A stretch of 64,000 nucleotides of DNA from Gemmatimonadota bacterium (GTDB taxonomy: Bacteria; Gemmatimonadota; Gemmatimonadetes; Palauibacterales; Palauibacteraceae): assembly GCA_046758745.1 (NCBI GenBank), contig JBHIAV010000008.1:28663-92662 (forward strand), in the 5' to 3' direction. The notes below the pieces were generated by a model, which worked only from the letters and a program-made list of their open reading frames with translations, did no database searches and had not been told where the DNA came from. The position numbers were made by a program, and so were the translations under genes. This document shows, piece after piece, positions 18,468 to 63,818 of this stretch. The first letter of the stretch is position 1. Each line of letters opens with the position of its first letter.

Positions 18468-19012
18468 CCGCCAGCCGCCTCGCGCCCGCCCCACCCCGCG
18501 AGAAGCGAGTCCACCCTGGCGCTCACGATCTCCCACGTCAGCGGTCCCACCTGCTTGTATGCCACCCGTCCCTCCCGGTCGAGGAAGAACGTCTCGGGCA
18601 CACCGTACACCCCGTAGTCGATGGCCGTGCGTGTTGCCGGGTCGAGGACGCTGGTCCACCCTCCGCCGAGCTGCTCGAGGAACCGGCGCGCGTTCACACG
18701 GCTGTCCTGATAAACCACCCCGACGATCCGCACGTCCCGCCCGGCGTACTCCTCCTCGGCCCGGCGAAGGACATCGTGCTCGCCCCGGCAGGGAAGGCAC
18801 CAGGAGGCCCAGAAGTTGAGCACCACCACCTGGCCGCGCAGCTCCTCGAGGGCGAGCGAGTCGCCGTCCAGCGTCTCGAGGTGAAACGCCGGCGCAGCCT
18901 CGCCGATGAGGGGCGTGGGCAGCACGAAGGTGTCCCGCGTGAGCCCGAACGCGAGCAGCGCCAGGAAGGGGAGCGCCAGGAGAGGCAGCAGCCAGCGAAC
19001 ACCCCTCCTCAT
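18464..19012 (-). CDS. ccmG: Thioredoxin-like CcmG/TlpA
   Basis: N-terminal TM, 'NFWASWCLPC', 'YGVYGVPETF'. Located in the ccm operon. Confidence 0.88.
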   Translation of the reverse strand: MRRGVRWLLPLLALPFLALLAFGLTRDTFVLPTPLIGEAAPAFHLETLDGDSLALEELRGQVVVLNFWASWCLPCRGEHDVLRRAEEEYAGRDVRIVGVVYQDSRVNARRFLEQLGGGWTSVLDPATRTAIDYGVYGVPETFFLDREGRVAYKQVGPLTWEIVSARVDSLLAGWGGREAAGG

Positions 19013-49544: not shown

Positions 49545-50165
49545 TCACGCGGGACCGGGCGGCGCCAGGCCGGCGATCGCTACACGACCCCGGCCCAGCC
49601 AGCGGATCGCTCGCAAGTCACCGTTCTTCACCTCGATCTCCTGGTATCTGGAGAGCGGCTCCGAGAGCGCGGCGAGCCACAGCACACGGATGAGGGCCAG
49701 ATGCGTGACGACGACGACAGGTCGTTCAGGCTCGGAGAGCTCGGCGTGCGCGATTCGGTCCACCGCATCCAATGCCCTCCGCTGCACGTCCAGCAGGGAC
49801 TCCCTCCCCTCCAGGGAGAACCGGTGCGCCGCCGCCTTCCACTCCGCGTACTCCGCCGGCCAGCGCGCCTTCACCTCTCCCTCCGTGAGATCCTTCCACG
49901 GGCCGACCTCGATCTCGCGCAGGTCGTGAACGGTGCGAACGTCGGCTCCGATCTCCGCGGAGAGGAACTCGGCCGTCTCCACGGCGCGGCGGACGGGGCT
50001 GGTGTACACCCGGCGAACCCGGAACGGCCGCAGACGCGCCGCGAGGGAGAACGTCTGCTCCCTTCCGCGGGCATTGAGGCGGTCGTCGTTCCAGCCGGCG
50101 TACCGGGCCTCGAGGTTAGAATCCGTCTCCCCGTGCCGGACCAGCAGCAGCTCTGGTCTCTCCAC
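49545..50165 (-). CDS. Histidine phosphatase family protein
   Basis: 'LVRHGET', 'SP..RA.ETA', 'LREI', 'ES', 'VTH'. GTG 50165 chosen as start. Confidence 0.88.
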   Translation of the reverse strand: MERPELLLVRHGETDSNLEARYAGWNDDRLNARGREQTFSLAARLRPFRVRRVYTSPVRRAVETAEFLSAEIGADVRTVHDLREIEVGPWKDLTEGEVKARWPAEYAEWKAAAHRFSLEGRESLLDVQRRALDAVDRIAHAELSEPERPVVVVTHLALIRVLWLAALSEPLSRYQEIEVKNGDLRAIRWLGRGRVAIAGLAPPGPA

Positions 50166-50287
50166 TGGCGATTCATCCGTGGGTGGCCGCGTGACGGCGG
50201 CGTGAAGCTCGGTGTTCGGGCCGCATGGGGCTGGGCCCTCGCTCGGCGGCCGGCGCCCGTCCAGCCCCTCGTGCGTCACCTTTGTAG

Positions 50288-53200
50288 GTGACCGAACGTT
50301 CCATATATTGGCTCGGTTCATCCAGGGGGGAAGCCCGTTTCGATTCGCTCATCAGCTGGACCACGTGCGAGGGTATCGTTCGGCGGGGAGATCGGGGCGG
50401 CCCGGCGACGTCGAGGGCCGCTAGGCTGACTCGTCTCGCTGCGTCGCAGCGCGGCCGCGGCCCGTCCTCCCCCCTCCGCGTCGACCGGTCGATCCGGCTC
50501 CGATTTCCGTTCCAGGCGGCGGTGGCGTTCCTCTCCGTCTTCCTCCCAGCCGCGACCGCCGTGCAGGCACAGGATCCGGCTCCGGTGGCCGACAGCGTCG
50601 CGTCTGAAGACGTGGCGAAGGGGCGAACGCCGGCGCTGGAGGCGCCCGCACGAGACGCCGAGGCGGCCGCGGTGGACACGCCCTCACCCCCTCCCGACAC
50701 GGTCCCCACGGGACTCCGCCTTGGACTGGGTCGGGTTCCCCTCGTCTGGCCTCACGATCTCGGCACGCCCGAGCCGCGGCCCGGGCCCCTCTCGCCCGCT
50801 TCCCCGCTCGGCGCCACGGAATGGCTTGAGCGGGCCCTCGCGCGGCGGGACACGCTGTTGGCGGCCCACCGGGATACGCTGTGGCTCGCCAGCCTCTTCC
50901 TCGACAAGCTGTCCGGCACGCCCCTGCGACGTATGGGCCCGGTCGGGCCCGACACGACAGGTGAACTGGTCGGGGCCCGCCGGGATGCCGCCCGAGCGCC
51001 GCAGATCCTGCCCGATGCCCTGAGCCGCTACGCGGACCTCGACCTACAGGTGGGAGGGTCCGGTCAGCTGAGGGCGCGGTGGGAGACCTTCTCGCCCTGT
51101 GTCGTGGGTTTCGGGGTGAACTGCAACGCGGGGGCCGTCCCGGACATCTCTCCCGAGTTCCAGCTGCAGGCCGTAGCCCGGGGCACGATCTCGGAGCGCG
51201 TCCACGTGGACGTCGACTTCGATCAAACCCGTGAGTTCAACGCCGTCAACAACATCAGCGTGTTCTACCTCGGGCGGCCGGACGAGATCGTGCGAAAGAT
51301 CGAGCTGGGCGAGGTCACCATGCCTCTGCCGCGGTCCCGATTCATCTCCCGCGGAATTCCGGCGGGCAACTTCGGTGTCCGCGGCGAGCTACGGCTCGGG
51401 GCTCTCGAGCTGCAGGCCGTGGTCGCCGAGCAGGGAGGGAACATTCAGGACCGCGAGATCACCCTGGACGTGAGCGGTGGCGAGCAGGGGGTCCTGCAGG
51501 ACCTTGAGGTTGTCCTGGACGACGCGGGATACCAGGGCGGGCAGTTCTACTTCACAGTCGATCCGCGGCGCATCGCCGGCTATCCGCTGATCGACGTGCT
51601 CAACCTCCAGGGAACCGAGGTCCCGGACAGCCTGCGCCCCTTCTCCAGCGTCAAGCTGTACCGCCGCGAATCGTCGATCGGGACGCAGGTGCAGAACACC
51701 GAATCGGGCGTGATCCAGGCCCGTGCCGTCGCCGTGCGGCCGCCGGGGGCGGATCCGACCCTCCCCGACAGCACGGAGTTCCGAGGCTTCTTCCGGCCGC
51801 TGGTCGAGGGGGAGGACTTCATCGTGCACCGCAGCGGCCTGTGGGTGGTGGTGCGCTCCCGCATACTCCGCGACGAGGCGCTCGCGGCCGCGTACATCTC
51901 GGTGACGGGTGGGTCGATCGGCGACTTCGATGCCGAGGAGAAGTTCCGTCAGCTCTCCAACACCGGCCAGGGGGAGCTGCCGCGTCTCGTCCTCCTCAAC
52001 GACCCGGAGACGCATCGCCCGGGCGGGCTCACCTGGGAGCGGGAGATGCACCACATCTACCGCATCTCGGGCTCGGAGGATGTGGAGCCCGGCAGCGTCC
52101 AGCTGACCATCTCGCAGGGCGCGATCGAGTCCGGGCCGATCATACGCTCGTTCGAGGGGATCGACTTCACCTTCCTCGAGATCTTCGGGCTCGATGATCA
52201 GCCGCGGGACGACCGTCTGGACGAAGGCCGCATCTGGCGACCGCGCAACGCCGGCGATTTCAGCGGCAACACGGTGATCGCAGGGAGCTACCTTGTCTTC
52301 CCCGCCCTGGAGCCGTTCCAGGATCCTCCTGTGCTTCGTGCGTCGCGCGTCCCCTCGCTGCAGGGGCAACCGTTCCCGCTCACCGAAGGCGACCGCAACC
52401 GCACCATCTACGAGGATCCGATCGACCAGACGCGGAACAGCAGTTCCCTGTATCGACTCAACTTCCGCTACCGGTCGCGCAGCACGGGTCGAGCCAGCTC
52501 CTTCTCGCTCGGTGCCATCGGCATACGTGACGGCAGCGAGCGCGTCACCCTGAACGGTCGAGACCTCGTCCGCGGAGAGGACTACACGATCGACTACGAA
52601 ATCGGGCGGCTGACCCTGATTCGTTCCGACGAGCTTTTCAGCGGGGTGGCGAAGCCGGCGCTGTCGGTGCGGTTCGAGCAGAAGCCCCTCTTCGAGGTGG
52701 CACGGAAATCGATCATCGGCCTCACCGGGACCTATCGTCTCGGCGAGTGGGGCCGGTTGGGTTTCGTCGGACTGTCCCAGAGCGAGAGCACGGTGCTCAC
52801 GCGTCCCGAGCTGGGGCTCGAGCCCGGCGGCATGAAGCTCGGAGGCGTCACGGCCGACGTGAATCTGAACGCCCCGTTCCTCACCCGCGCCATGAACGCC
52901 CTGCCCGGGGTCAGCACCGACCGCGCGAGCTGGATACAGCTGGACGGCGAGCTGGCAGGCTCGGTGCCCACCACGAATCGCTTCGGCACCACCTTCGTGG
53001 ACGACTTCGAGGGCGCCACCGGATTGGCGGTCCCGCTGGTGACCCGGGCGTGGCGGCACGGCTCGCTCCTCTCCCGTCCCGAGGAGGACGGCCTTCAGAA
53101 CTTTCTCCCGGATCCTCCCGACGGGACGAACCAGCTGCAGGCGACATGGCAGTCGCAGTGGCTGGATCAAACCCTGGTTCGGGGCCCGCTCCTCACCCTA

Positions 53201-56200
53201 CAGGTCGATCCGGCTCTGCGGGTCCTGAACCCGACTGCGCAGGAGACCGTGCTGTGGATCAGCCTGGCGGATGCGCCGCCGGGGGGCGGCAAGGGGTGGG
53301 CGGCCATCACGCACGTTCTCTCCCAGACCGGGCTCGACCTGACGACCTCGGAGTTTCTTGAGTTCTACGCCAGCACGCTCGGGAACGAGTCGCCGGAACT
53401 GGCGCTGATCATCGATGTGGGCGTCGTTTCCGAGGATGCATTTGTGCGGGACTCGCTCGGCTTGGTGTCCGGCCGGGGGTTGCTCGATCAGGAGGCCGAC
53501 CCGGCCGTCGGCGTGTGGGGCATCCGGGATGACACGGGGCTGTGGGGCCAGGGGTGCCGCTCCCAGCCCAACACGACAGCCTTCCCTCTCGGGGATGAGC
53601 GGGCGAACTGCACCGACAACAATGGGTTCGAGGACACGGAAGACCTAAACCGGGACAACTTCCTCAACACGGATGAGCGATTCTTTCGCTACATCGTCCC
53701 GCTGAATCTGCCTTCCCGCTACCTCAACCGTGCCACCGGGGGCGAGTTCCGCTTCAGCCTGTACAAGATCCCGCTCCGCGATCCGGACCTCAGAGAGGGC
53801 CTCACGGATCAGGGGCTGCAGAGCATCCGACACATACGGATCACGCTCACGGCCGACGCACCTGCACGGGTGCTCCTCAGCCGGATGGACTTCACGGGAT
53901 CGCCGTGGCTGAAACGGGCGGGCACGGGGAGCGCGGGCGGCCTTGCCGGCTCCGTCCCGGGCTCGGCCGGGACCGTCACGGTCGGCTCGATATCAACGCG
54001 GGAAGCCAGCTACGTCTCGCCACCGGGCGTAGTGGAGCAACAGGCGGATCGAACGGACGAGATCGCCCTTACCGCCACACAGTTCAACGAGCAGTCGCTG
54101 CGCGTCACGTTCTCCGACATCCCGCCCGGTGAGCGGATCGAGGTGTTTCGCCGCTTCGCCGAGACGACCCGCAACTTCCTCCGGTACCGACGGATGCGCG
54201 CATGGGTGCTTCCGGTTCGGGGCGAGTGGGGACAGATGTCGCCCCTCCGCTTCTCCGTTCGCGTCGGTTTCGATGAGAACAACTTCTATCTGTACCGCAC
54301 GCCCCGTCCGGCCGTGCCGGAAACCCCCACCTCCCAGGATTGGCGCCCGGAGATTCGCATAGAGATGGAGCGGTGGGTTCGGCTGCGAGCCGCAGCGGAA
54401 CAGCGCATCCTGGCGAGCCGGGGAGGGCTCCCCGGCGACAGCGCGCTCGTGGTGTGGGATGTGGATGTGCTGCCGGATGGGGACAGCACGTACGCGGTGG
54501 TGATCAACGATCGCTCTCGTGCCCCGAACCTCGCGGCGATCCGGGAGATGGCCATCGGGATCGAGAACATCGGCACGGAGGCGTTAGGGGGAGGAGAGAT
54601 CTGGGTCAACGATCTCCGCCTCGACCAGGCGGCCGACGACACCGGCGTCGCGGCACGGGGAGCGCTGGATCTCCGCGCGGCGGACATCCTCTCCCTGCAG
54701 GCAGACTACGACAGGCAGAATCCGTTCTTCCGGCAGCTCGGGCAGGGGCCGAGCTTCGAGTCGAGCTGGGGGTTCAACTCGCGCGCCCGCCTGCAATTCG
54801 GCCGGTTCCTTCCGGCTCGATGGGGCCTGGCCGTCCCCCTCGAGCTTCAGCACGCTCGCTCGAGCAACGACCCCTTCTTCCTTCCCTCGACGGATGTTCG
54901 GGCGAGCGAGATCGCGGGGCTGCGGACCGGTGAGAGCGAGCTGACGCGGTTCAACGTGTCCCTGTCGAGGCAGGGCCGCTCGGCCAGCCCGATTCTCCGA
55001 TCGACGATCGATGGGCTGCGCATCGGCTACTCGCGCGGCTGGTCCAGCCGGGTCACCACTCAGAGCGCAACGTCGGGGTGGAGCTGGAACCTGGGGGTCG
55101 ACTGGGGCCGCAACGTGACCGACCAGTCGATCCGCGTCCTGCCCGGCTTCCTGCGGGGCTTCATCGATCTTCTTCCGGACTTCATCAGCGAGTCCCAGCT
55201 TCTGAAGAACCTCAAGGATCTGCGTTTCCGCTGGACCCCACGGGCGCTGAGGCTCGGCGCCACTCTGGCGCAATCGGAAGACCGGATCCGCCGTTTCCAG
55301 AGCACGGTCCGCCGGCCGGCTGACGGCTCGGTCCAGCCGTCTATCAGACGGGACCGTCCCCTTCGCCCCGCCGCCGGGATCGACCTGCAACCATTCCCCT
55401 CTCTCACGGCGAGCCTGGATTTCAGCTCTACACGGGACCTCGTTCCGGCCTTGCTGCGAGTCAAGGGCGCCACTTCCCGACAGCTCCTGAGGAACGAGAG
55501 ACGGGAGCTCCTGGGGATGAACATCGGCTGGGAGACGTCCCGCACGATCACCACGCGCCTCTCCTACCGGCCGAGGCTCGCGAGCTGGTTCGAGCCTGCT
55601 CTCACCGTGACCACGGGATTCACCACGAACCGCTCCGAGTCGTATATACAGACGCTCGGCGAAGACACCACCCTGGTGCGTGACATGCGCACCGACCGCC
55701 AGACGCGACTCAACCTCAGCGTGCACCCGGACCGGTTCCTAACCGCGTTCGGTGTGCCGGAGCGATCCGAGGCCGGCGGAGCCGTCAGGGCGATCCGGTC
55801 CGTGTGGGACCGGATCAAACCGATCCGGTTCGACTGGAACCGACGTGTCAACGCCTCCTTCGACCGGGCGGAAGTCGCCCCGGCGTTCAGCGATCAGTTC
55901 GTCACCGCGAGGCTCGACAACCTCAGAATCGCGGGCACGGACACGGCTTCCTCGGCCGGAGCCAGCGAGCGCTGGTCCCTCGAGGGCGGCTACCGCTTTC
56001 CGGCCAGCCTGGAGGGAACGCTGCGTTATGCGGTCGTCGAGGGCCGCACGTTCACGCTACTCAGCGAGCGCCGCAGAAGGGAGATCGAATGGCCGAGCCT
56101 GACCGTTCGGTGGCGACGAGTCCCGCTCCCGAAGGGGCTGCGGGGGGTCATCAACAACCTGAGCCTCAACAGCGGGTTCGTACAACGTGAGCGCCTGACC

Positions 56201-56734
56201 AACACGGTGACCGGTCAGGACCTGGGCGACGACCAGACCGGGATCACGGTCGGCGGCATCCTCACGTTCGGCAACGGCTTCAACCTCAGCTACCAATATG
56301 AGAAGACCACGACCGAGCGCAGGGACGCCACGGGGTCGAGCGACACCAACCGCGGCTCGCACGACGTGCGGGCGACCGGCACCCTCCAACCGCCGGACTC
56401 ATGGCGCTTCCTCAGGCGACCCATTCGCCTGTCGCTCGCCTACAGCCGCAACGGAAACTTCGAGTGCCGCGAGATCGGCGGCGCCGGGTTCGCGGGGTTC
56501 GGCGGAACCGGGCTGCTGGTGGGGGAGGATTGCGTCTCGCACGTGGACCAGACGACGCAGAACGTCAGCTTCACGCTGGACACCGACTTCACTGGCTACT
56601 CCCTGGGGATCCAGCTGACCTGGGTGCAGCGCGCGAGCGAAGTGGGGCGTCAGCTTCGGACCAATCAGTACAACTTGAACATCTTCGGCCGCTTCTTCTT
56701 CCGCACCGAAACGGAGGCCGAGGTCCGCCCCTGA
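50288..56734 (+). CDS. sprA: SprA/Sov-like giant outer-membrane beta-barrel (T9SS translocon homolog)
   Basis: ~2100 aa, signal-like 'AAVAFLSVFLPAATAVQA|QD'. SprA-type motifs 'GEDYTIDY', 'FVDDFEG', 'EFLEF', 'DTEDLNRDN', 'FNEQSL', 'IWVNDLRL', and alternating amphipathic beta-strands. The true start is probably between 50426 and 50522. Confidence 0.8.
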   Translation: MTERSIYWLGSSRGEARFDSLISWTTCEGIVRRGDRGGPATSRAARLTRLAASQRGRGPSSPLRVDRSIRLRFPFQAAVAFLSVFLPAATAVQAQDPAPVADSVASEDVAKGRTPALEAPARDAEAAAVDTPSPPPDTVPTGLRLGLGRVPLVWPHDLGTPEPRPGPLSPASPLGATEWLERALARRDTLLAAHRDTLWLASLFLDKLSGTPLRRMGPVGPDTTGELVGARRDAARAPQILPDALSRYADLDLQVGGSGQLRARWETFSPCVVGFGVNCNAGAVPDISPEFQLQAVARGTISERVHVDVDFDQTREFNAVNNISVFYLGRPDEIVRKIELGEVTMPLPRSRFISRGIPAGNFGVRGELRLGALELQAVVAEQGGNIQDREITLDVSGGEQGVLQDLEVVLDDAGYQGGQFYFTVDPRRIAGYPLIDVLNLQGTEVPDSLRPFSSVKLYRRESSIGTQVQNTESGVIQARAVAVRPPGADPTLPDSTEFRGFFRPLVEGEDFIVHRSGLWVVVRSRILRDEALAAAYISVTGGSIGDFDAEEKFRQLSNTGQGELPRLVLLNDPETHRPGGLTWEREMHHIYRISGSEDVEPGSVQLTISQGAIESGPIIRSFEGIDFTFLEIFGLDDQPRDDRLDEGRIWRPRNAGDFSGNTVIAGSYLVFPALEPFQDPPVLRASRVPSLQGQPFPLTEGDRNRTIYEDPIDQTRNSSSLYRLNFRYRSRSTGRASSFSLGAIGIRDGSERVTLNGRDLVRGEDYTIDYEIGRLTLIRSDELFSGVAKPALSVRFEQKPLFEVARKSIIGLTGTYRLGEWGRLGFVGLSQSESTVLTRPELGLEPGGMKLGGVTADVNLNAPFLTRAMNALPGVSTDRASWIQLDGELAGSVPTTNRFGTTFVDDFEGATGLAVPLVTRAWRHGSLLSRPEEDGLQNFLPDPPDGTNQLQATWQSQWLDQTLVRGPLLTLQVDPALRVLNPTAQETVLWISLADAPPGGGKGWAAITHVLSQTGLDLTTSEFLEFYASTLGNESPELALIIDVGVVSEDAFVRDSLGLVSGRGLLDQEADPAVGVWGIRDDTGLWGQGCRSQPNTTAFPLGDERANCTDNNGFEDTEDLNRDNFLNTDERFFRYIVPLNLPSRYLNRATGGEFRFSLYKIPLRDPDLREGLTDQGLQSIRHIRITLTADAPARVLLSRMDFTGSPWLKRAGTGSAGGLAGSVPGSAGTVTVGSISTREASYVSPPGVVEQQADRTDEIALTATQFNEQSLRVTFSDIPPGERIEVFRRFAETTRNFLRYRRMRAWVLPVRGEWGQMSPLRFSVRVGFDENNFYLYRTPRPAVPETPTSQDWRPEIRIEMERWVRLRAAAEQRILASRGGLPGDSALVVWDVDVLPDGDSTYAVVINDRSRAPNLAAIREMAIGIENIGTEALGGGEIWVNDLRLDQAADDTGVAARGALDLRAADILSLQADYDRQNPFFRQLGQGPSFESSWGFNSRARLQFGRFLPARWGLAVPLELQHARSSNDPFFLPSTDVRASEIAGLRTGESELTRFNVSLSRQGRSASPILRSTIDGLRIGYSRGWSSRVTTQSATSGWSWNLGVDWGRNVTDQSIRVLPGFLRGFIDLLPDFISESQLLKNLKDLRFRWTPRALRLGATLAQSEDRIRRFQSTVRRPADGSVQPSIRRDRPLRPAAGIDLQPFPSLTASLDFSSTRDLVPALLRVKGATSRQLLRNERRELLGMNIGWETSRTITTRLSYRPRLASWFEPALTVTTGFTTNRSESYIQTLGEDTTLVRDMRTDRQTRLNLSVHPDRFLTAFGVPERSEAGGAVRAIRSVWDRIKPIRFDWNRRVNASFDRAEVAPAFSDQFVTARLDNLRIAGTDTASSAGASERWSLEGGYRFPASLEGTLRYAVVEGRTFTLLSERRRREIEWPSLTVRWRRVPLPKGLRGVINNLSLNSGFVQRERLTNTVTGQDLGDDQTGITVGGILTFGNGFNLSYQYEKTTTERRDATGSSDTNRGSHDVRATGTLQPPDSWRFLRRPIRLSLAYSRNGNFECREIGGAGFAGFGGTGLLVGEDCVSHVDQTTQNVSFTLDTDFTGYSLGIQLTWVQRASEVGRQLRTNQYNLNIFGRFFFRTETEAEVRP

Positions 56735-56867
56735 TGCTCGGGCGGCGCGTTCGCCGAGGTCCCCCGTCCGCCGGCGCGGGGCGGTGGGAGCTGCCCCCGC
56801 CCCTCTCGTTGATCCGTCGTTGATTCCCGGTCGGAACGCTCCGATCGGGAGAAGGGGAGGTGCGGGC

Positions 56868-57578
56868 GTGCTGGATCTGAATCGGACGGAGAGACGGACC
56901 CTCCTGCTGGGTACCATGCTGGTCGCGCTCGGTGCGGCCGTGCGACTCGGTGTAGGTCCGGGAGAAGCGGCGTACTCCTGGCGGCCGGTCACGGGAACGG
57001 ATTCCGTACCGGACGCGGCGGCCGTTCGACGCGCGGTGCGAGCGGGAGTCGCCCGGGCCGCCCATGCCGCCCGGCCGCTCGCGCCGGGGGAACGGGTCGA
57101 CCCCAACACGGCGCCGGCCGTGGAGCTGGAGCGGCTCCCCGGCGTGGGGCCGGCGCGCGCCCAGGCGATCGTGGACGATCGGGGCCGCTCCGGGCCCTTC
57201 GCCAGCCTCGAAGAGCTGGCCCGCGTCCCGGGGATCGGCTCGGCCACGCTCCGCCGGCTGGCTCCGTACGTGACCCTGGCTCCCCGCCCGGCGGAGCGCG
57301 CACGCCTCCCCGCCCGCGTCGCCTCCCCTCCGGGCAGGAACCGGCCACCGGGCTCGGCGGGCGAGCGGCGACCCGGGGGGCGCGCGCCGGTGAATCTCAA
57401 CCGTGCGAGCGCCGAGGAGCTGCAGGCCCTCCCCGGGATCGGTCCCGTTCTCGCGGCACGCATCCTTCATCTGCGGGCCTCCCGAGGTCGCTTGCGCGCC
57501 GTGGAGGAACTGCTGGACGTTCCGGGTATAGGCCCGCGCAGGCTGGAGGTCCTTCGCCCGCTGGTCACGGCACCCTGA
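56868..57578 (+). CDS. comEA: ComEA-family DNA-binding protein with two HhH domains
   Basis: GGAGG RBS and GTG start, N-terminal TM, twice '(V)xxNxA...ELxxLPGxGP.xA..I...R...G.(F/L)..xEELxxVPGIG'. Confidence 0.88.
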   Translation: MLDLNRTERRTLLLGTMLVALGAAVRLGVGPGEAAYSWRPVTGTDSVPDAAAVRRAVRAGVARAAHAARPLAPGERVDPNTAPAVELERLPGVGPARAQAIVDDRGRSGPFASLEELARVPGIGSATLRRLAPYVTLAPRPAERARLPARVASPPGRNRPPGSAGERRPGGRAPVNLNRASAEELQALPGIGPVLAARILHLRASRGRLRAVEELLDVPGIGPRRLEVLRPLVTAP

Positions 57579-57744
57579 CCGGAGGAGGTGTGGCCGGCGA
57601 GGTCCGCACCCCGGCGGCACGTACCTTGCTCCGCCCTTCGCGCGCCGCCGGGCCGCTCGCGCCGGGTCGAACTCTCCTGCGCGATCCGCCCGTCGGCGTC
57701 GAGCGTCTAGGCCCGGCCGGTGTAACCCTTGCGTACGGCGGAAG

Positions 57745-59457
57745 ATGGCTTCCACGTCGCTGGCCCAAGATCAGATCGGCGAGCTGCTGCTCCGAGAGCA
57801 CCTGATCACGCGCGAGCAGCTCGATAAAGCGTTGGCGGAGCAGCGTCAGAACGGAACGCGGCTCGGCTTCAGCCTTGTCTCGATGGGATTCGTTTCCGAG
57901 CAGAACCTCACACGCCTCCTCTCCCGACAATACCGTGTCCCTGCGGTCGATCTCTCCGAGGTGGACGTCGATCCGAAAATCCTCAAGCTCGTCCCGGCCG
58001 AGTTCGCCACCAAGCATCTCGTCCTCCCGCTCCGCCGGGTGGGCCGCACGCTCACCGTGGCGATGATGAGCCCGACGGACCTCAGCGTCATCGACGACCT
58101 CAAGTTCATTACGCGCTTCGACATCGATGCGGTGGTGGCCGGCGAGTACTCGCTGCGCACGGCGATCGAGAAGTACTACGAGGTCATCACCGACCGGCTC
58201 GGCGAGCTCCTCGAGGAGCTGGAGGAGCAGGAGGTCCAGGTCGTCGAGGACCGCGACGAGGACTTCTCGGCCTCGCAGCTCGCCGCGCAGGTCGAAGAGG
58301 CTCCGGTCGTCAAACTGATCAACGGGATCCTCACCGACGCGGTGCGCCGGGGCGCCTCCGATATTCACATCGAGCCGTACGAGAGGGAGCTCCGAGTTCG
58401 CTATCGGATCGACGGCGCCCTGCAGGAGATCATGAAGCCGCCGTATCGCATGAGGGCGGCCCTCATGTCCCGTGTGAAGATCCTCGCCGACCTGAACATC
58501 GCCGAAAGGCGCATCCCGCAGGACGGACGCATCAAGCTGAAGATCGGGGATCGGGTGATCGACTTCCGCGTCTCGACGCTGCCGGTGCTGTTCGGCGAGA
58601 AGATCGTGCTCCGCATCCTGGACAAGGGGAACCTGACGCTGGACCTCGAGACGTTCGGAATGGAGAAGAAGGCGGAGCAAGATTTCCTCGAGGCGATCGG
58701 CAAGCCGTACGGGATGGTGCTGGTGACCGGCCCGACCGGATCCGGGAAGACGACGACGCTGTACGCCGCCCTGAGTCGGATCAACACATCGGAGGTCAAC
58801 ATCATGACCGCCGAGGACCCCGTCGAGTACAACCTGCACGGGATCAACCAGGTACAGGTGCGCACCGAGGTAGGGATGACGTTCGCCACCGCCCTGCGAG
58901 CGTTCCTGCGACAGGACCCGAACATCATCATGGTGGGAGAGATCCGTGACCTGGAGACCGGCGGGATCGCCGTGAAGGCCGCCCTCACCGGCCACCTGGT
59001 GCTCTCCACTCTTCACACGAACGATGCCGCGTCGACGATGACCCGCATGGTGGACATGGGGATCGAACCGTTCAACGTCGCATCGGCGGTGAACCTGATC
59101 ACAGCGCAGCGGCTGGTTCGTCGCATCTGCAGCAACTGCCAGGTGGAAGCCCACTACGTTCCGGAGATCCTACGCGCCGCCGGCCTCACGGAAGAGGAGG
59201 CGGCGAGCACGACATTCTTCAAGGGCGAGGGGTGCGATGCGTGCGGCGACTCGGGGTACTCGGGGCGCCAGGGGCTGTACGAAGTGATGCCGATGAGCGC
59301 GACGCTCCGGCGCATGGTCCTGCAGGGCGCCTCGGCGGCCGAGCTGCAGGAGCAGGCGATCGAGGAGGGGATGATCACGCTCCGCCAGGACGGGCTGATA
59401 AAGGTCAAGCGGGGCATCACCAGCCTCGAGGAGGTCCTCAAAGAGACGGCGGCGTAG
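57745..59457 (+). CDS. pilB: Type IV pilus assembly ATPase PilB
   Basis: MshEN-like N-terminus, 'ASDIHIEP', 'ERRIPQDGR', 'GPTGSGKTTT', 'EDPVE', 'RQDP..IMVGEIRD', 'STLHTN', Zn motif CxxC...CxxC. Confidence 0.93.
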   Translation: MASTSLAQDQIGELLLREHLITREQLDKALAEQRQNGTRLGFSLVSMGFVSEQNLTRLLSRQYRVPAVDLSEVDVDPKILKLVPAEFATKHLVLPLRRVGRTLTVAMMSPTDLSVIDDLKFITRFDIDAVVAGEYSLRTAIEKYYEVITDRLGELLEELEEQEVQVVEDRDEDFSASQLAAQVEEAPVVKLINGILTDAVRRGASDIHIEPYERELRVRYRIDGALQEIMKPPYRMRAALMSRVKILADLNIAERRIPQDGRIKLKIGDRVIDFRVSTLPVLFGEKIVLRILDKGNLTLDLETFGMEKKAEQDFLEAIGKPYGMVLVTGPTGSGKTTTLYAALSRINTSEVNIMTAEDPVEYNLHGINQVQVRTEVGMTFATALRAFLRQDPNIIMVGEIRDLETGGIAVKAALTGHLVLSTLHTNDAASTMTRMVDMGIEPFNVASAVNLITAQRLVRRICSNCQVEAHYVPEILRAAGLTEEEAASTTFFKGEGCDACGDSGYSGRQGLYEVMPMSATLRRMVLQGASAAELQEQAIEEGMITLRQDGLIKVKRGITSLEEVLKETAA

Positions 59458-59763
59458 CGTTCCGCAACGGCGTGTGCGTTTTGCGACTGTGCGGGCGCTC
59501 CTCCTCCTCCCCAAGTCGCGGCCCTCATCCCGAGACGGCCGCAGGAAAGGGCGGAAGCGGGGGCTTCTCTCCGTCGGGCCCGGGATGATCCGGGGCACCC
59601 GGCTTGCTCCGAGCGGCTCGGAATGTGACCGGCAGGGCCCCATCCGCGAGGCGCACGGGGAGCGGGCCGCGGCCTCCCTGTCGGGCAGATCCGCTTCCGC
59701 GAAGGCCGATGAGCCGGTTGGACGAACTCTCAGTGCGGGTAAGGCCATGCGAGCAGGCGACCG

Positions 59764-60861
59764 ATGAGCGAGCGCGCGCCCCCAACTCTCAGGAGCCTCC
59801 TCGAGGAGATGATCGAGCGAGGGGCCTCCGACATGCACCTGTCGGCCGGCGAGCGACCCAAGATGCGGATCGACGGCTCGCTGGCGAGCAGCGCGCTCGA
59901 TCTGGTGCTGACCCCGAAGGACACCCAGGCGCTCGCGTATTCGGTGCTCACGGAGCAGCAAAAGAAGCGCTTCGAGCAGAACGACGAGCTGGACCTGTCC
60001 TTCGCCGTGGCCAACCTCTCGCGCTTCCGCGGCAACGTATACCGCCAGCGGGGGACGGTGGCGATGGCGATACGACAGATCCCGTTCGAGATCCTCGGAT
60101 TCCGCGAGCTGGGTCTGCCTCCGCTCGTGGCACGTCTCGCCGAGCGGCCCCGCGGGCTCGTGCTGGTCACGGGCCCGACCGGGTCGGGGAAGTCGACCAC
60201 CCTGGCGGCGATGATCGACAAGATCAACCGCGAACGGCGTGGACACATCGTCACGGTCGAGGATCCGATCGAGTTCGTGCACCGGCACAAAGGCTGTCTG
60301 GTGAACCAGCGCGAGGTAGGGAGCGACACGGGCTCCTTCGCGGCGGCGCTCAAGTACGTCCTCCGACAGGACCCGGACGTGATCCTCATCGGCGAGATGC
60401 GTGATCTGGAGACGATCCAGGCGGCGCTGACGATCGCCGAGACGGGACACCTGGCGCTTGCCACGCTGCACACGAACTCGGCCGCCGAGTCGATCAACCG
60501 GATCATCGACGTGTTCCCGGCCCACCAGCAAGAGCAGGTGCGGGCGCAGCTAGCCTTCGTGCTGGAGGGCGTGATCACACAGATGCTGATCCGCCGGGCC
60601 GGAGGGACGGGCCGCGTCGTGGCGTGCGAGATCCTGATCGCCACGCAGGCGATCCGATCGATGATTCGCGACGACAAGGTGCACCAGATCTACTCCGCCA
60701 TGCAGTCGGGCAAGAAGCACGGCATGCAGACGATGAACGACGCGCTGTATTCGCTGTACATGCGCGACGAGGTGAAGCTCAACGAGATCCTGCGACTGAG
60801 CAGTGATCCGGTCGAGCTTCGCCGGATGCTGGGAGAGCCGGAGGCCGCCGCCGCGAGCTGA
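59764..60861 (+). CDS. pilT: Type IV pilus retraction ATPase PilT
   Basis: 'ASDMHL', 'RFRGN', 'GPTGSGKSTTLAA', 'EDPIE', 'QREVG.DT', 'AETGHL', 'TLHT', AIRNLIRE-like 'AIRSMIRD', 'GMQT'. Confidence 0.94.
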   Translation: MSERAPPTLRSLLEEMIERGASDMHLSAGERPKMRIDGSLASSALDLVLTPKDTQALAYSVLTEQQKKRFEQNDELDLSFAVANLSRFRGNVYRQRGTVAMAIRQIPFEILGFRELGLPPLVARLAERPRGLVLVTGPTGSGKSTTLAAMIDKINRERRGHIVTVEDPIEFVHRHKGCLVNQREVGSDTGSFAAALKYVLRQDPDVILIGEMRDLETIQAALTIAETGHLALATLHTNSAAESINRIIDVFPAHQQEQVRAQLAFVLEGVITQMLIRRAGGTGRVVACEILIATQAIRSMIRDDKVHQIYSAMQSGKKHGMQTMNDALYSLYMRDEVKLNEILRLSSDPVELRRMLGEPEAAAAS

Positions 60862-60977
60862 GCAGGGCGCCTGGGCCGAGGGGTCGCACGGCCCGGCGGT
60901 CGGTGAGCGATGAGTCGCCGTTGAGCTCGCTGGCCGCGCGTGTCGGGGCAGCGACGCCGGGCGATTCGGACAGGAGA

Positions 60978-60989
60978 AGAGAGAGAGAG
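60978..60989. repeat. (AG)6 dinucleotide tract upstream of pilC
   Basis: agagagagagag ends 16 nt before the pilC ATG. Confidence 0.6.
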
Positions 60990-61005
60990 CAGCGTAGGAC
61001 GAAGA

Positions 61006-62205
61006 ATGCCAGTCTGGGTCTACAGTGCGCGCACGGTCGCCGGGGAGCTGAAGCGGGATCAGATCGAGGTTCCCTCGCGAGAGGACGTCGTCGCCTACCT
61101 GCGGCGTCGGAAGCTGATCCCGGTCTCCGTGCGGGAGAAGCCGAGAGAGTTCTATTTCCGGAGCAGGGGGCGGGTCAAGACACGCGACATCGTCATCCTG
61201 ACCCGGCAGTTCGCCACGATGATCAACGCCGGCCTGCCCCTCGTGCAGGCGCTGGACATCCTGGCGAAGCAGTCGGACAACAAGACGATCAAGAGCACGG
61301 TGGAGGCCGTGCTGCACGACGTGGAGTCGGGGAACACCCTGGCCGATGCGCTCCGGGAGCACCCGAAGGTCTTCTCTACCCTGTACGTAAACATGGTCGC
61401 CGCCGGCGAGACGGGGGGCATCCTCGACACGATCCTCCTCCGTCTGGCGACCTTCCTGGAGAAGAACGAGGCGCTGTTGAGGAAGGTGAAGGGGGCCCTG
61501 ATCTACCCGGCCGTCATCACCGTGGTCTCGATGCTGGCGATCGTGATCCTCCTCCTCTTCGTGATCCCGACCTTCCAGGGGATGTTCGAGAGCTTCAACC
61601 AGGTGCTGCCCCTCCCGACGCGGATCGTGATCGCGGCGTCGAACTTCCTACAGGGCTACTGGGCGGCCCTCGGGGCCGGCCTGTTCGCGGCCGGGTTCCT
61701 GTTCAGGCGATGGGTGGCGACCCCCTCCGGACGCCTGAGGTTCGACCGGTTCCTGTTGCGGGTACCGGTCATCGGGACGCTGGCCCGCAAGAGCGCGGTG
61801 GCCCGTTTCACCCGCACGCTCGGCACGCTGCTCGGCTCGGGCGTCACCATCCTGGACGGCCTCGAGATCACCGCCCGCACGGCCGGGAACCGGGTCATCC
61901 ATGACGCCGTGATGGCCAGCCGAAGCTCCATCGCGGGAGGCGAGTCGATCGCCGAGCCGCTCCGCCACTCGGGGGTGTTTCCTCCGATGGTGACTCAGAT
62001 GATCGCGGTCGGTGAGGAGACCGGCGACCTGGACGGCATGCTTTCGAAGATCGCGGACTTCTTCGACGACGAGGTGGACGTCGCGGTCGAGGCGCTGCTG
62101 AAGGCCATGGAACCGGCCATGATCGTGGTTCTCGGGAGCATCGTGGGCGGCATGATCGTCGCCATGTATCTTCCGATCTTTGGCGTCATCAACGCGATCG
62201 GGTAG
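61006..62205 (+). CDS. pilC: Type IV pilus platform protein PilC (GspF family)
   Basis: 'TRQFATMINAGLPL', 'YVNMVAAGETGG.LD', 'YPA', 'FTRTL.TLL.SG', 'MIAVGEETG.LD.ML', 'AMYLPIF'. Confidence 0.94.
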   Translation: MPVWVYSARTVAGELKRDQIEVPSREDVVAYLRRRKLIPVSVREKPREFYFRSRGRVKTRDIVILTRQFATMINAGLPLVQALDILAKQSDNKTIKSTVEAVLHDVESGNTLADALREHPKVFSTLYVNMVAAGETGGILDTILLRLATFLEKNEALLRKVKGALIYPAVITVVSMLAIVILLLFVIPTFQGMFESFNQVLPLPTRIVIAASNFLQGYWAALGAGLFAAGFLFRRWVATPSGRLRFDRFLLRVPVIGTLARKSAVARFTRTLGTLLGSGVTILDGLEITARTAGNRVIHDAVMASRSSIAGGESIAEPLRHSGVFPPMVTQMIAVGEETGDLDGMLSKIADFFDDEVDVAVEALLKAMEPAMIVVLGSIVGGMIVAMYLPIFGVINAIG

Positions 62206-62389
62206 GCGGAGGCGGCGGCGTTCGATGCAACACATAGGCGCGCAGAACGTCGGGCGCGCGCCTACGACTCAGACGCCGGAAGCATCAATGCAAGCAGGAA
62301 GGCCGCGCCGGAGATCGCCGCCCGATGGCTCTCCCGCCCGGTGGCTCTCCCACCCGTTGCTCCTCGCTATCCAGAGGGTTAACTCCACA

Positions 62390-63818
<1,429 letters not shown>

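Follow-up and report, generated by a model that had tools for sequence, protein, structure and literature searches.

The DNA analysed here, called the window, is a stretch of 64,000 nucleotides from a Gemmatimonadota bacterium (contig JBHIAV010000008.1, positions 28,663 to 92,662), in which a gene of the SprA/Sov family is followed by comEA, pilB, pilT and pilC (Table 1). An earlier note, made from the sequence alone, had described these five genes in this order on one strand, with two helix-hairpin-helix (HhH) domains in ComEA, and the profile matches agree with it at every gene. The gaps from sprA to pilC are 133, 166, 306 and 78 nt, if ComEA starts at the GTG at 56868. Thus, the spacing of about 130-310 bp given in that note is right for the first three gaps but not for PilT-PilC. 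This GTG is preceded by GGAGG and is probably the real start, giving a protein of 236 aa; with the longest ComEA ORF the first gap is 49 nt. The cluster ends at its 3' side with PilC, and a TPP riboswitch and thiC come next.

Table 1. Genes of the cluster and markers of its boundaries (positions in the window).
Feature	Coordinates	Strand	Remarks
Histidine phosphatase gene, divergent (boundary marker)	49545..50321	-	PF00300 161.2 bits
SprA/Sov-family outer-membrane translocon	50288..56734	+	2148 aa, longest ORF; TIGR04189, PF14349, PDB 6h3i
ComEA-like	56784..57578	+	N-terminal membrane anchor, two HhH DNA-binding domains
PilB, type IVa pilus extension ATPase	57745..59457	+	TIGR02538; N-terminal MshEN / c-di-GMP-binding-type domain
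PilT, pilus retraction ATPase	59764..60861	+	TIGR01420
PilC, inner-membrane platform protein	60940..62205	+	PF00482 T2SSF x2
TPP riboswitch before thiC (boundary marker, outside the system)	62388..62488	+	RF00059 67.7 bits, gathering score 54.3
thiC	62478-63818		PF01964 620.5 bits

In a Pfam scan, 47 other ORFs of the window matched housekeeping and metabolic families only and included no further T9SS or pilus gene; as had been stated before, no porKLMN/gldKLMN, porV, pilQ or pilin gene is among them. The claim that there is no other T9SS gene is correct for the window but not for the genome, where genes for a barrel of the PorV/PorQ family and for a CTD-only protein lie elsewhere and track SprA. 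The genome assembly is 87.4% complete in 130 contigs, and its PorV-family, secretin and ComEC matches are all outside the contig of the window. Consensus scans found no sigma-70-like promoter and four terminator-like sites against 4.2 expected, all of them within SprA or PilC and none intergenic. RNA folding gave no structure signal in the SprA-ComEA spacer (z -1.03) or in the 306-nt PilB-PilT spacer (z +2.16), and the TPP riboswitch was the sole match in an Rfam search.

The hallmark of SprA/Sov proteins is a giant 36-strand beta-barrel fold. The protein encoded in the window matches TIGR04189 with 512.9 bits (cut-off 200) in three stretches within model positions 135-1817 of 2319, PF14349 with 74.6 bits, and the solved SprA of Flavobacterium johnsoniae, 6h3i_A, in three stretches (E 1.1e-36, 128.8 bits). 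Candidate starts range from 50288 to about 50522, and a signal-peptide-like hydrophobic stretch at residues about 70-94 is followed by Gln. Gln is the first polar residue past the N-terminal hydrophobic stretch in 94/583 proteins of the genome (16%) against a background share of 8%, which is suggestive only. The gene is single-copy in the genome, and its codon-position GC is like that of genuine genes in the window DNA. Judging from these matches, it is a genuine SprA/Sov-type homologue in a non-canonical setting. It belongs to the same family (TIGR04189) as SprA/Sov of the Bacteroidota T9SS (F. johnsoniae; PDB 6h3i, 6h3j and 8gl6, among others), and its length is similar to the 2403 aa of the F. 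johnsoniae protein. The proposal of a non-canonical T9SS-derived gene has held up, in that a true SprA homologue stands in a genome in which GldK/L/M/N, PorU and TIGR04183 CTD cargo were not detected.

ComEA gave 128.9 bits with PF12836 (HHH_3) in two stretches, 97.8 bits with TIGR00426 (cut-off 53.1), and 119.7 bits, under the cut-off of 152.35, with the full-length comE model TIGR01259; its N-terminus is Arg-rich and continues into a hydrophobic segment. PilB matches TIGR02538 with 757 bits (cut-off 675.65), PF00437 with 489, PF05157 with 80.6 and NF053729 with 64.5 bits, and PilT matches TIGR01420 with 488 bits (cut-off 319.1). PilC contains PF00482 T2SSF twice (220.3 bits) and is under the cut-offs of NF052606 (489.9 vs 700) and GspF (403.8 vs 424). 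ComEA and PilC are single-copy in the genome, PilB has no second full copy, and a second PilT/PilU-like copy with 45% identity is on contig C12. The type IVa pilus/competence set, composed of PilB, PilT, PilC, PilMNOPQ, ComEA and ComEC, has been studied in Thermus, Neisseria, Vibrio and Pseudomonas. Like that set, the motor genes of the window have PilM, PilO, PilQ, pilins and ComEC to go with them elsewhere in the genome. Four N_methyl/GspH pilins are encoded on contig C27, as are PilM (196.1 bits), PilO (57.5 bits) and a PilQ (135.8 bits) that has AMIN, Secretin_N and Secretin domains, and ComEC is on contig C1 (150.1 bits); the genome-wide search for pilQ and comEC that had been proposed thus found both. 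The C27 ORF at the position of PilP had no Pfam match. Downstream of the pilMNOPQ cluster are aroC and aroK, and in Pseudomonas too aro genes come after pilQ. Because the genome has no PilB or PilC besides those of the window, these must serve the pilus machine of C27. Unlike the usual type IVa pilus/competence genes, however, ComEA has two tandem HhH modules and the motor operon lies directly downstream of a T9SS translocon gene.

In most of the literature consulted, the T9SS is presented as a Bacteroidota system with SprA, PorV, PorU and a motor and ring of GldKLMN at its centre (PMC4793230, PMC10994853). A proposed genome-wide search for porV led to a PorV/PorQ-family gene at C23:757-1848, which gave 85.1 bits with NF033709, just under the cut-off of 90. 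Its orthologues give 85-92 bits in relatives, and other members of the class reach about 150 bits. The C23 barrel gave 23.8 bits with the PorV equivalog NF033710 (cut-off 250; no match in the genome-level search) and is also far below the PorQ equivalog cut-off; in being below both, it is unlike its counterpart in the Bacteroidota T9SS. The 101 genomes of the phylum were split in two ways, into 82 with and 19 without SprA, and into 82 of the window's class and 19 of other classes. A PorV-family match was found in 81/82 SprA-plus genomes, all with E <= 1.3e-20, the sole exception being G085. Among the 19 SprA-minus genomes, 11 had no PorV-family match, six had weak ones (E 7e-9 to 4e-14) and two had strong ones. 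The co-absences of SprA and the PorV-family gene are spread over at least nine genera and four families, and both are missing in a genome (G055) of which two other members of the genus keep both.

The CTD-only protein is encoded at C5:60504-60944 and consists of 147 aa with a signal peptide and a T9SS-type CTD. It has no NCBIfam or Pfam match and was detected with E 7.6e-12 by a CTD profile that was built from phylum sequences and included its G060 orthologue, which itself passes TIGR04183 (31.4 bits, cut-off 23). Orthologues are single-copy in 71/82 genomes of the window's class, and the protein is still present in 10/19 SprA-less genomes. Prediction of a complex between the PorV-like barrel and this mini-CTD protein gave a score of 0.76 against 0.02 for the best of three controls, a pass that signifies likeness and may stem from the memory of the predictor, since PorV-CTD complexes have already been solved. 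The 0.76 mark was reached by 116/157 solved complexes and 2/215 mismatched pairs, which is a rough calibration made with our own alignments. Contacts agree between the runs to at least 88%, and the pLDDT of the partner is at least 82. The co-occurrence of a PorV/PorQ-family barrel and the predicted docking of a CTD protein on it are thus features shared with the Bacteroidota T9SS. In contrast, the window genome has no TIGR04183 match, and its cargo would be the mini-CTD protein and perhaps one S8 protease on C1 (1026 aa), the C-terminus of which weakly matches the phylum CTD profile (E 0.021). TIGR04183 gave one or two weak matches each in 29/82 genomes of the window's class, whereas all 19 genomes of other classes had 13 to over 51.

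The class differs from the Bacteroidota T9SS also in the absence of PorU and of detectable GldK/L/M/N. PorU (NF033707) was not found in the window genome, and there was no real match in the 82 genomes of the class. Since PorU is above the cut-off in 18/19 genomes of other classes, where its gene adjoins a PorV-family gene, the search for PorU works in this phylum. Families f9-f11 of those classes share with the window SprA (24-26% identical in f9), a ComEA-like gene next to it and PorV-family genes, but differ in having full-length PorU beside PorV, 4-19 PorV-family copies per genome and the large numbers of CTD proteins given above. Judged by these profile comparisons, PorU and almost the entire cargo were lost in the window's class. 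Matters are otherwise with GldKLMN. For GldL/GldM, TIGR03513 was over the cut-off in 0/101 genomes, TIGR03517 gave a match in 0/101, and the Pfam GldM models PF12081 and PF12080 gave one in 0/5 each. For GldK/GldN, TIGR03525 gave only generic sulfatase-domain matches in the window genome (66.6 bits, cut-off 350) and nothing above the cut-off in five further genomes, and TIGR03523 was found in 0/101. These models matched nowhere, controls included, and the 14 control genomes, all without a T9SS, provide no positive control. Around the best GldK-like matches in two cargo-rich genomes (G010 and G006), no gldKLMN-like operon was recognised by ORF size and hydrophobic segments. The earlier note had counted a genome-wide absence of GldLM as support for its idea. 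None was indeed found; however, GldKLMN was missed equally in sister lineages with PorU, PorV, SprA and abundant CTD cargo, so its absence proves little.

The order of the cluster was compared in genome loci and in a metagenome scan of 78 loci. Where at least 2.5 kb of downstream DNA is available, ComEA comes after SprA in 15/16 genome loci and 28/29 metagenome loci; where at least 7 kb is available, PilB, PilT and PilC come next in 12/12 genome and 20/21 metagenome loci. The related genomes counted here are not independent samples, and every metagenome locus that reaches PilB has one 52-84% identical to that of the window. The sprA-comEA order is met again in several taxonomic orders, in genome as well as metagenome loci with SprA identities of 24-63%, and it is retained at 24-36%. 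At 4/4 loci of the most distant lineage, where SprA is 24-26% identical, SprA is followed by a small ComEA-like gene with a single HhH, and pilBTC is absent beside the pair. As for the flanks, ThiC follows the cluster in 0/24 related genome loci. The lptFG genes are divergently upstream of SprA in 12/20 genome and 37/47 metagenome loci with room, and lptF/lptG occupy the place of the histidine phosphatase in most other lineages; lptFG of the window genome itself is on contig C24. A glutaminyl cyclase gene lies between SprA and ComEA in 16/29 metagenome loci with room and is carried by 35 fetched loci, and G080 has peptidases and a TonB receptor there. SprA is without ComEA or a Pil gene within 6-8 kb in G065 and in metagenome locus L105. 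The linkage, for which synteny in relatives had been the suggested check, is conserved; the adjacency is not due to chance and extends phylum-wide. A literature search that covered few subscription journals gave no account of sprA adjoining comEA-pilBTC or of the function of SprA in Gemmatimonadota.

We propose, with a probability of about 0.6, that a reduced T9SS-like SprA-PorV module and an ordinary type IVa pilus/competence operon are neighbours in a synteny that is ancient yet separable. Two separable envelope systems would then adjoin each other in a gene order of ancient origin. In the window's class of Gemmatimonadota, SprA would be the central part of a pared-down T9SS-like export module, with the PorV/PorQ-family barrel of C23 as its partner, and would still export protein together with it, although the module would have no recognisable GldK/L/M/N motor or ring. 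The mini-CTD protein is a likely ligand or cargo of the module. As a PorU sortase is missing, the LPS-anchoring step would drop out, and any cargo would be either released or retained. ComEA would be the periplasmic DNA receptor of an ordinary type IVa pilus/competence machine, for which PilB, PilT and PilC would supply the motor and platform at the cytoplasmic membrane and other contigs the remaining parts (PilM/PilO/PilQ secretin, pilins and ComEC). Rather than one machine, the neighbourhood may reflect inherited order, with envelope genes perhaps under shared regulation. Inherited order leaves the long-lasting sprA-comEA adjacency unexplained, including the case of the most distant lineage, where pilBTC is absent.

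It had been supposed instead that the channel may be coupled to a type IV pilus motor or to DNA uptake. SprA would then be a T9SS-derived channel that works with its neighbours, either as an outer-membrane DNA route for ComEA or as a channel driven by or serving PilBTC. The block keeps its order where the flanks differ, and the SprA-ComEA pair persists without pilBTC in the most distant lineage. Moreover, because the class is without PorU and GldK/L/M/N and nearly without CTD cargo, retention of the pore needs explaining. However, PilQ, PilM/PilO and the pilins of C27 and ComEC of C1 form a full alternative route. PilB was found in 100/101 phylum genomes and is kept in 19/19 SprA-less genomes, comEA-pilBTC is intact in 4/4 fetched SprA-less loci, and G090, a SprA-less member of the same family, has the identical locus with the histidine phosphatase followed by ComEA, PilB, PilT and PilC. 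Losses of SprA go together with those of the PorV-family gene and not with losses of pilus genes; SprA tolerates intervening genes and, in G065 and L105, stands without these neighbours. The most cargo-rich T9SS lineages are likewise without detected GldKLMN, so this absence is not specific to the sprA-comEA-pilBTC arrangement. Pilus coupling of SprA is thus not supported by the comparison of gene contents, and a channel working with its neighbours is distinctly improbable. A SprA-PorV pore that lost its sortase and most cargo may also have been co-opted by the type IV pilus or by ComEA, in the latter case to take up or release DNA. Such co-option would explain the sprA-comEA adjacency down to 24% SprA identity, but we regard it as a long shot.

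An ordinary complete T9SS, of which GldKLMN and cargo are too divergent for models trained on Bacteroidota or are encoded in the 12.6% of the genome that the assembly lacks, is unlikely but deserves to be taken seriously. The blank results of the GldK/L/M/N models even in sister lineages rich in PorU, PorV, SprA and CTD proteins suggest a blind spot of the models or of the pipeline, for which the T9SS-less controls are no remedy, and the S8 protease of C1 could be a cargo. Nevertheless, PorU, readily detected in the sisters, is missing in 82/82 genomes of the class, many of them 96-100% complete, and canonical CTD matches fall from dozens to 0-2 per genome. The two Pfam GldM domains and the surroundings of the best GldK-like matches in the two cargo-rich genomes also gave nothing. 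It may even be that the entire phylum runs SprA/PorU/PorV/CTD secretion without a GldKLMN-type motor. A chance or lineage-specific adjacency without evolutionary meaning, to which the earlier note had given room, is scarcely credible: the signals at the operon level are uninformative, but the same order at 24-63% SprA identity in several orders, with the synteny counts above, rejects it.

In conclusion, a reduced SprA-PorV module beside a separable pilus/competence operon would mean that a whole class has been reduced to a translocon, a barrel like PorV and a CTD protein without cargo, while PorU, PorV and dozens of cargoes persist in its sister classes, and no motor was recognisable in any of these classes. 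If the neighbourhood is merely an inherited order, it is a useful note for annotation and nothing further. If the proposed reduction is true, the phylum would hold a series of reductive evolution, and the block of lptFG and sprA-(glutaminyl cyclase)-comEA-pilBTC would be a handle for genetics in culturable Gemmatimonadota. The class would then provide a natural minimal system in which to learn what SprA-PorV does alone and what its power source is.

The plus-strand span 50288-62205 of the window holds five genes. Models matched them to SprA, a ComEA-like protein, PilB, PilT and PilC, exactly as the earlier note had read them, and Pfam scans of 47 further ORFs in the window returned housekeeping families only. 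Contig C8, to which the window belongs, comes from an assembly of 3.08 Mb in 130 contigs, with a completeness of 87.4%. The GTG at 56868, which is preceded by GGAGG, is the likely start of the ComEA-like gene, and with this start the intergenic gaps are 133, 166, 306 and 78 nt. The PilB-PilT spacer (59458-59763), at 306 nt, is longer than the 12-209 nt measured across 24 genome loci with SprA (in locus L007, for example, PilB ends at 18627 and PilT starts at 18692), and showed neither an Rfam match nor a stable fold (z +2.16). Genes 5' of the cluster run in the opposite direction and are metabolic. A TPP riboswitch on the 3' side introduces thiC; because it overlaps the longest-ORF start of that gene, the real start is probably slightly downstream of 62478. 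Judging from the NCBIfam tool description, a PGAP-style annotation would give the window protein the name SprA, because its score clears the cut-off of the equivalog model that NCBI applies.

Features of the cluster and of related systems in the source genome (C-numbers are its contigs)
Feature	Position	Strand	Size, support and context
SprA	window, within 50288-62205	+	2148 aa; TIGR04189 512.9 bits (cut-off 200), PF14349, PDB 6h3i (E 1.1e-36)
ComEA-like protein	window, within 50288-62205	+	membrane anchor, two HHH_3 domains
PilB	window, within 50288-62205	+	TIGR02538 757 bits
PilT	window, within 50288-62205	+	TIGR01420 488 bits
PilC	window, within 50288-62205	+	T2SSF twice
TPP riboswitch	window 62388-62488		RF00059, 67.7 bits
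PorV/PorQ-family barrel	C23:757-1848		NF033709 85.1 bits (cut-off 90)
Mini-CTD protein	C5:60504-60944 (minus strand; fetched locus L085:9502-9945)		147 aa; E 7.6e-12 with a CTD profile built from the phylum
Pilus genes	C27		four pilin-like genes, PilM, PilO, PilQ (AMIN, Secretin_N, Secretin); then aroC, aroK, topA
ComEC	C1		
Tad/Flp-type pilus fragment	C117:75-2329 (fetched locus L045)		RcpC/CpaB and CpaC-type secretin; fills a 2.4-kb contig

The pilus/competence side of the source genome is ordinary. It encodes a secretin route for both pili and DNA. A tblastn search of the entire assembly with the window proteins found single copies of ComEA, PilB and PilC, and a PilT-like gene in addition to PilT. 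Since PilB and PilC are single-copy, those of the window must serve as motor for the machine encoded on C27. The Tad/Flp-type fragment means that the genome has a second pilus system.

Linkage of the five genes is conserved in relatives. Of 24 genome loci with SprA, 16 extend for 2.5 kb or more beyond it, and all of these but L025 (15/16) have a ComEA-like gene no more than 2 kb downstream; PilB follows in 13/13 loci that extend for 4.5 kb or more, and the three genes PilB, PilT and PilC are present in 12/12 that reach 7 kb or more. With the same room thresholds, 78 metagenome loci gave 28/29, 23/24 and 20/21, respectively, the miss being L105. SprA identity across these genome and metagenome loci falls from 63% to 28%. 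Chance adjacency of sprA and comEA-pilBTC is thus excluded. The flanks are variable: ThiC is downstream in none of the 24 genome loci, and lptF/lptG, which encode permeases for LPS export, are found upstream of sprA and divergent from it in 12/20 genome and 37/47 metagenome loci with room (e.g. L046:764-5521, L054, L056 and L057) but not in the window's clade, where a histidine phosphatase and an amidohydrolase occupy their position; the source genome has lptF/lptG at C24:25177-27574. In many lineages a glutaminyl cyclase of 305-350 aa and Bacteroidota type (PDB 6qro, E 2.9e-57; PF04389) is encoded between SprA and ComEA, in 16 of 29 metagenome loci with room and in 35 fetched loci in total (e.g. 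L160:14714-15628). No orthologue was found in the source genome, and none lies in the window between 56734 and 56784. In f9, the most distant class (SprA 24-26% identical), a small ComEA-like gene with a single HhH lies directly 3' of SprA in 4/4 loci; in the three loci with called ORFs, a sigma-54 regulator and further genes come next, and pilBTC is absent. Gene order across these lineages points to lptGF / sprA-(glutaminyl cyclase)-comEA-pilBTC as the likely ancestral block. SprA, the PorV-like barrels and the mini-CTD proteins share a Gln after their predicted signal peptides; according to the abstract of PMC5837995, the 'Q-rule' is valid for Bacteroidetes but does not extend to the FCB group as a whole. 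L006, a 4733-bp contig binned with an Akkermansiaceae (Verrucomicrobiota) MAG, codes for a SprA with 57% identity to that of the window and is probably a mis-binned Gemmatimonadota contig.

SprA and the pilus genes can be separated. In G090, a genome of the window's own family, the order at the same locus is histidine phosphatase, ComEA, PilB, PilT and PilC, with SprA cleanly missing. A further three genomes without SprA retain ComEA-PilBTC, with or without the cyclase gene, which remains beside comEA in SprA-less loci L051-L053. G065 has SprA and no ComEA or Pil genes nearby; in G080, two peptidases and a TonB receptor are inserted between SprA and ComEA. In the complete genome G068 (L055, G068:C1:4394000-4413000), the order is SprA-ComEA-PilT-PilC, PilB being absent between ComEA and PilT; the best match to the PilB model elsewhere in this genome has an E of about 1e-123, weak by the standards of the family. 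PilB was found in 100 of 101 phylum genomes regardless of SprA state. The pilus/competence operon therefore needs no adjacent SprA, nor SprA at all.

The T9SS side of the source genome is reduced, not absent. No protein exceeded the cut-offs of the GldM, GldL, GldK, PorV (equivalog), PorU and type A CTD models. Following up weak PorV matches in four relatives revealed signal-peptide-bearing barrels of 315-340 aa, a family whose scores against the PorV/PorQ model NF033709 are 85-92 bits (cut-off 90); the member on C23 has a housekeeping context (rnr, prfB, lysS, lolCDE). A PorV-family match is present in 81 of 82 SprA-plus genomes, all with E of at most 1.3e-20; in the 19 SprA-minus genomes it is absent from 11, only weak in 6 (E 7e-9 to 4e-14) and strong in 2, these counts coming from related, non-independent genomes. 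Genomes lacking both are spread across at least nine genera in four families, so several independent co-losses are likely. A signal peptide and a C-terminal domain of T9SS type make up the whole mini-CTD protein. Its gene lies downstream of recO-selB; orthologues occur in G002 and in G060, the latter in the same context and passing TIGR04183. A CTD without cargo is odd, and a ligand, a plug or a relic are candidate roles. The gene is single-copy in 71/82 genomes of the window's class, 61/63 with SprA and 10/19 without, a looser association than that of the PorV family. A complex prediction docked the mini-CTD on the PorV-like barrel with a score of 0.76 (best of three controls, 0.02), a value reached by 116/157 solved complexes and 2/215 mismatched pairs, a rough calibration since own alignments were used. 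The runs agreed in at least 88% of contacts, with partner pLDDT of at least 82. PorV-CTD complexes are already solved and the predictor may be reproducing them, so the predicted complex shows likeness, not binding. At its C-terminus, a 1026-aa S8 subtilase (C1:99801-102881; L086:4802-7882) weakly matches the phylum-derived CTD profile (E 0.021); the reduced system may have this protein as a second cargo.

We sampled 101 genomes, 82 of the window's class (f1-f8) and 19 of other classes (f9-f11); the unpublished G061 and G101 add one genome each to the tallies. SprA was found in 63/82 and 19/19, respectively, and the PorV/PorQ family in 70/82 and 19/19, the latter with 4-19 copies each. Real PorU was found in 0/82 (three weak matches covered the CTD part only) and over the cut-off in 18/19; the remaining one is split across contigs. 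PorU adjoins a PorV-family gene in the other classes (e.g. G016:C15:1106-5384 and G007:C31:20192-24459). The TIGR04183 CTD matched 29/82, with one or two weak matches each, and 19/19, with 13 to more than 51 each. Searches for PorU, PorV, CTD and SprA thus work in Gemmatimonadota, and the window's class has indeed lost PorU and nearly all canonical cargo. Several f9 genomes (G006, G009, G015, G024, G028 and others) carry ten to nineteen PorV/PorQ-family paralogues each, many of about 404 aa and 135-160 bits, a large expansion.

The earlier note proposed that genome-wide absence of GldLM, together with conserved linkage, would support a non-canonical channel. Without positive controls, the GldM and GldN models matched 0/101 genomes, GldL reached its cut-off in 0/101, and GldK stayed below its own cut-off in the five genomes tested, four of them cargo-rich. 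Because GldKLMN are undetected even where a cargo-rich T9SS is obvious, their absence from the source genome cannot be used in that way. In f9-f11, either the models are blind or the T9SS operates without the known motor and ring. A canonical T9SS hidden in the source genome is unlikely. The idea that SprA is coupled to the T4P motor or to DNA uptake draws on the stability of the sprA-comEA pair, which a reduced export module leaves unexplained; but the secretin on C27 and ComEC on C1 offer another route, the pilus operon is intact without SprA, and we consider such coupling very improbable.

A passage of a review (PMC11285876) states that T9SS may be present in Gemmatimonadetes; in a passage of Abby et al. 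(PMC4793230), T9SS is found only in Bacteroidetes, with Gemmatimonadetes genomes too few for the distribution figure. We found no published account of the sprA-comEA-pilBTC linkage, of a PorU-less, cargo-poor T9SS state or of missing GldKLMN in Gemmatimonadota. In conclusion, we favor, with a probability of about 0.6, a reduced SprA-PorV export module whose synteny with a standard T4a pilus/competence operon is ancient but separable.
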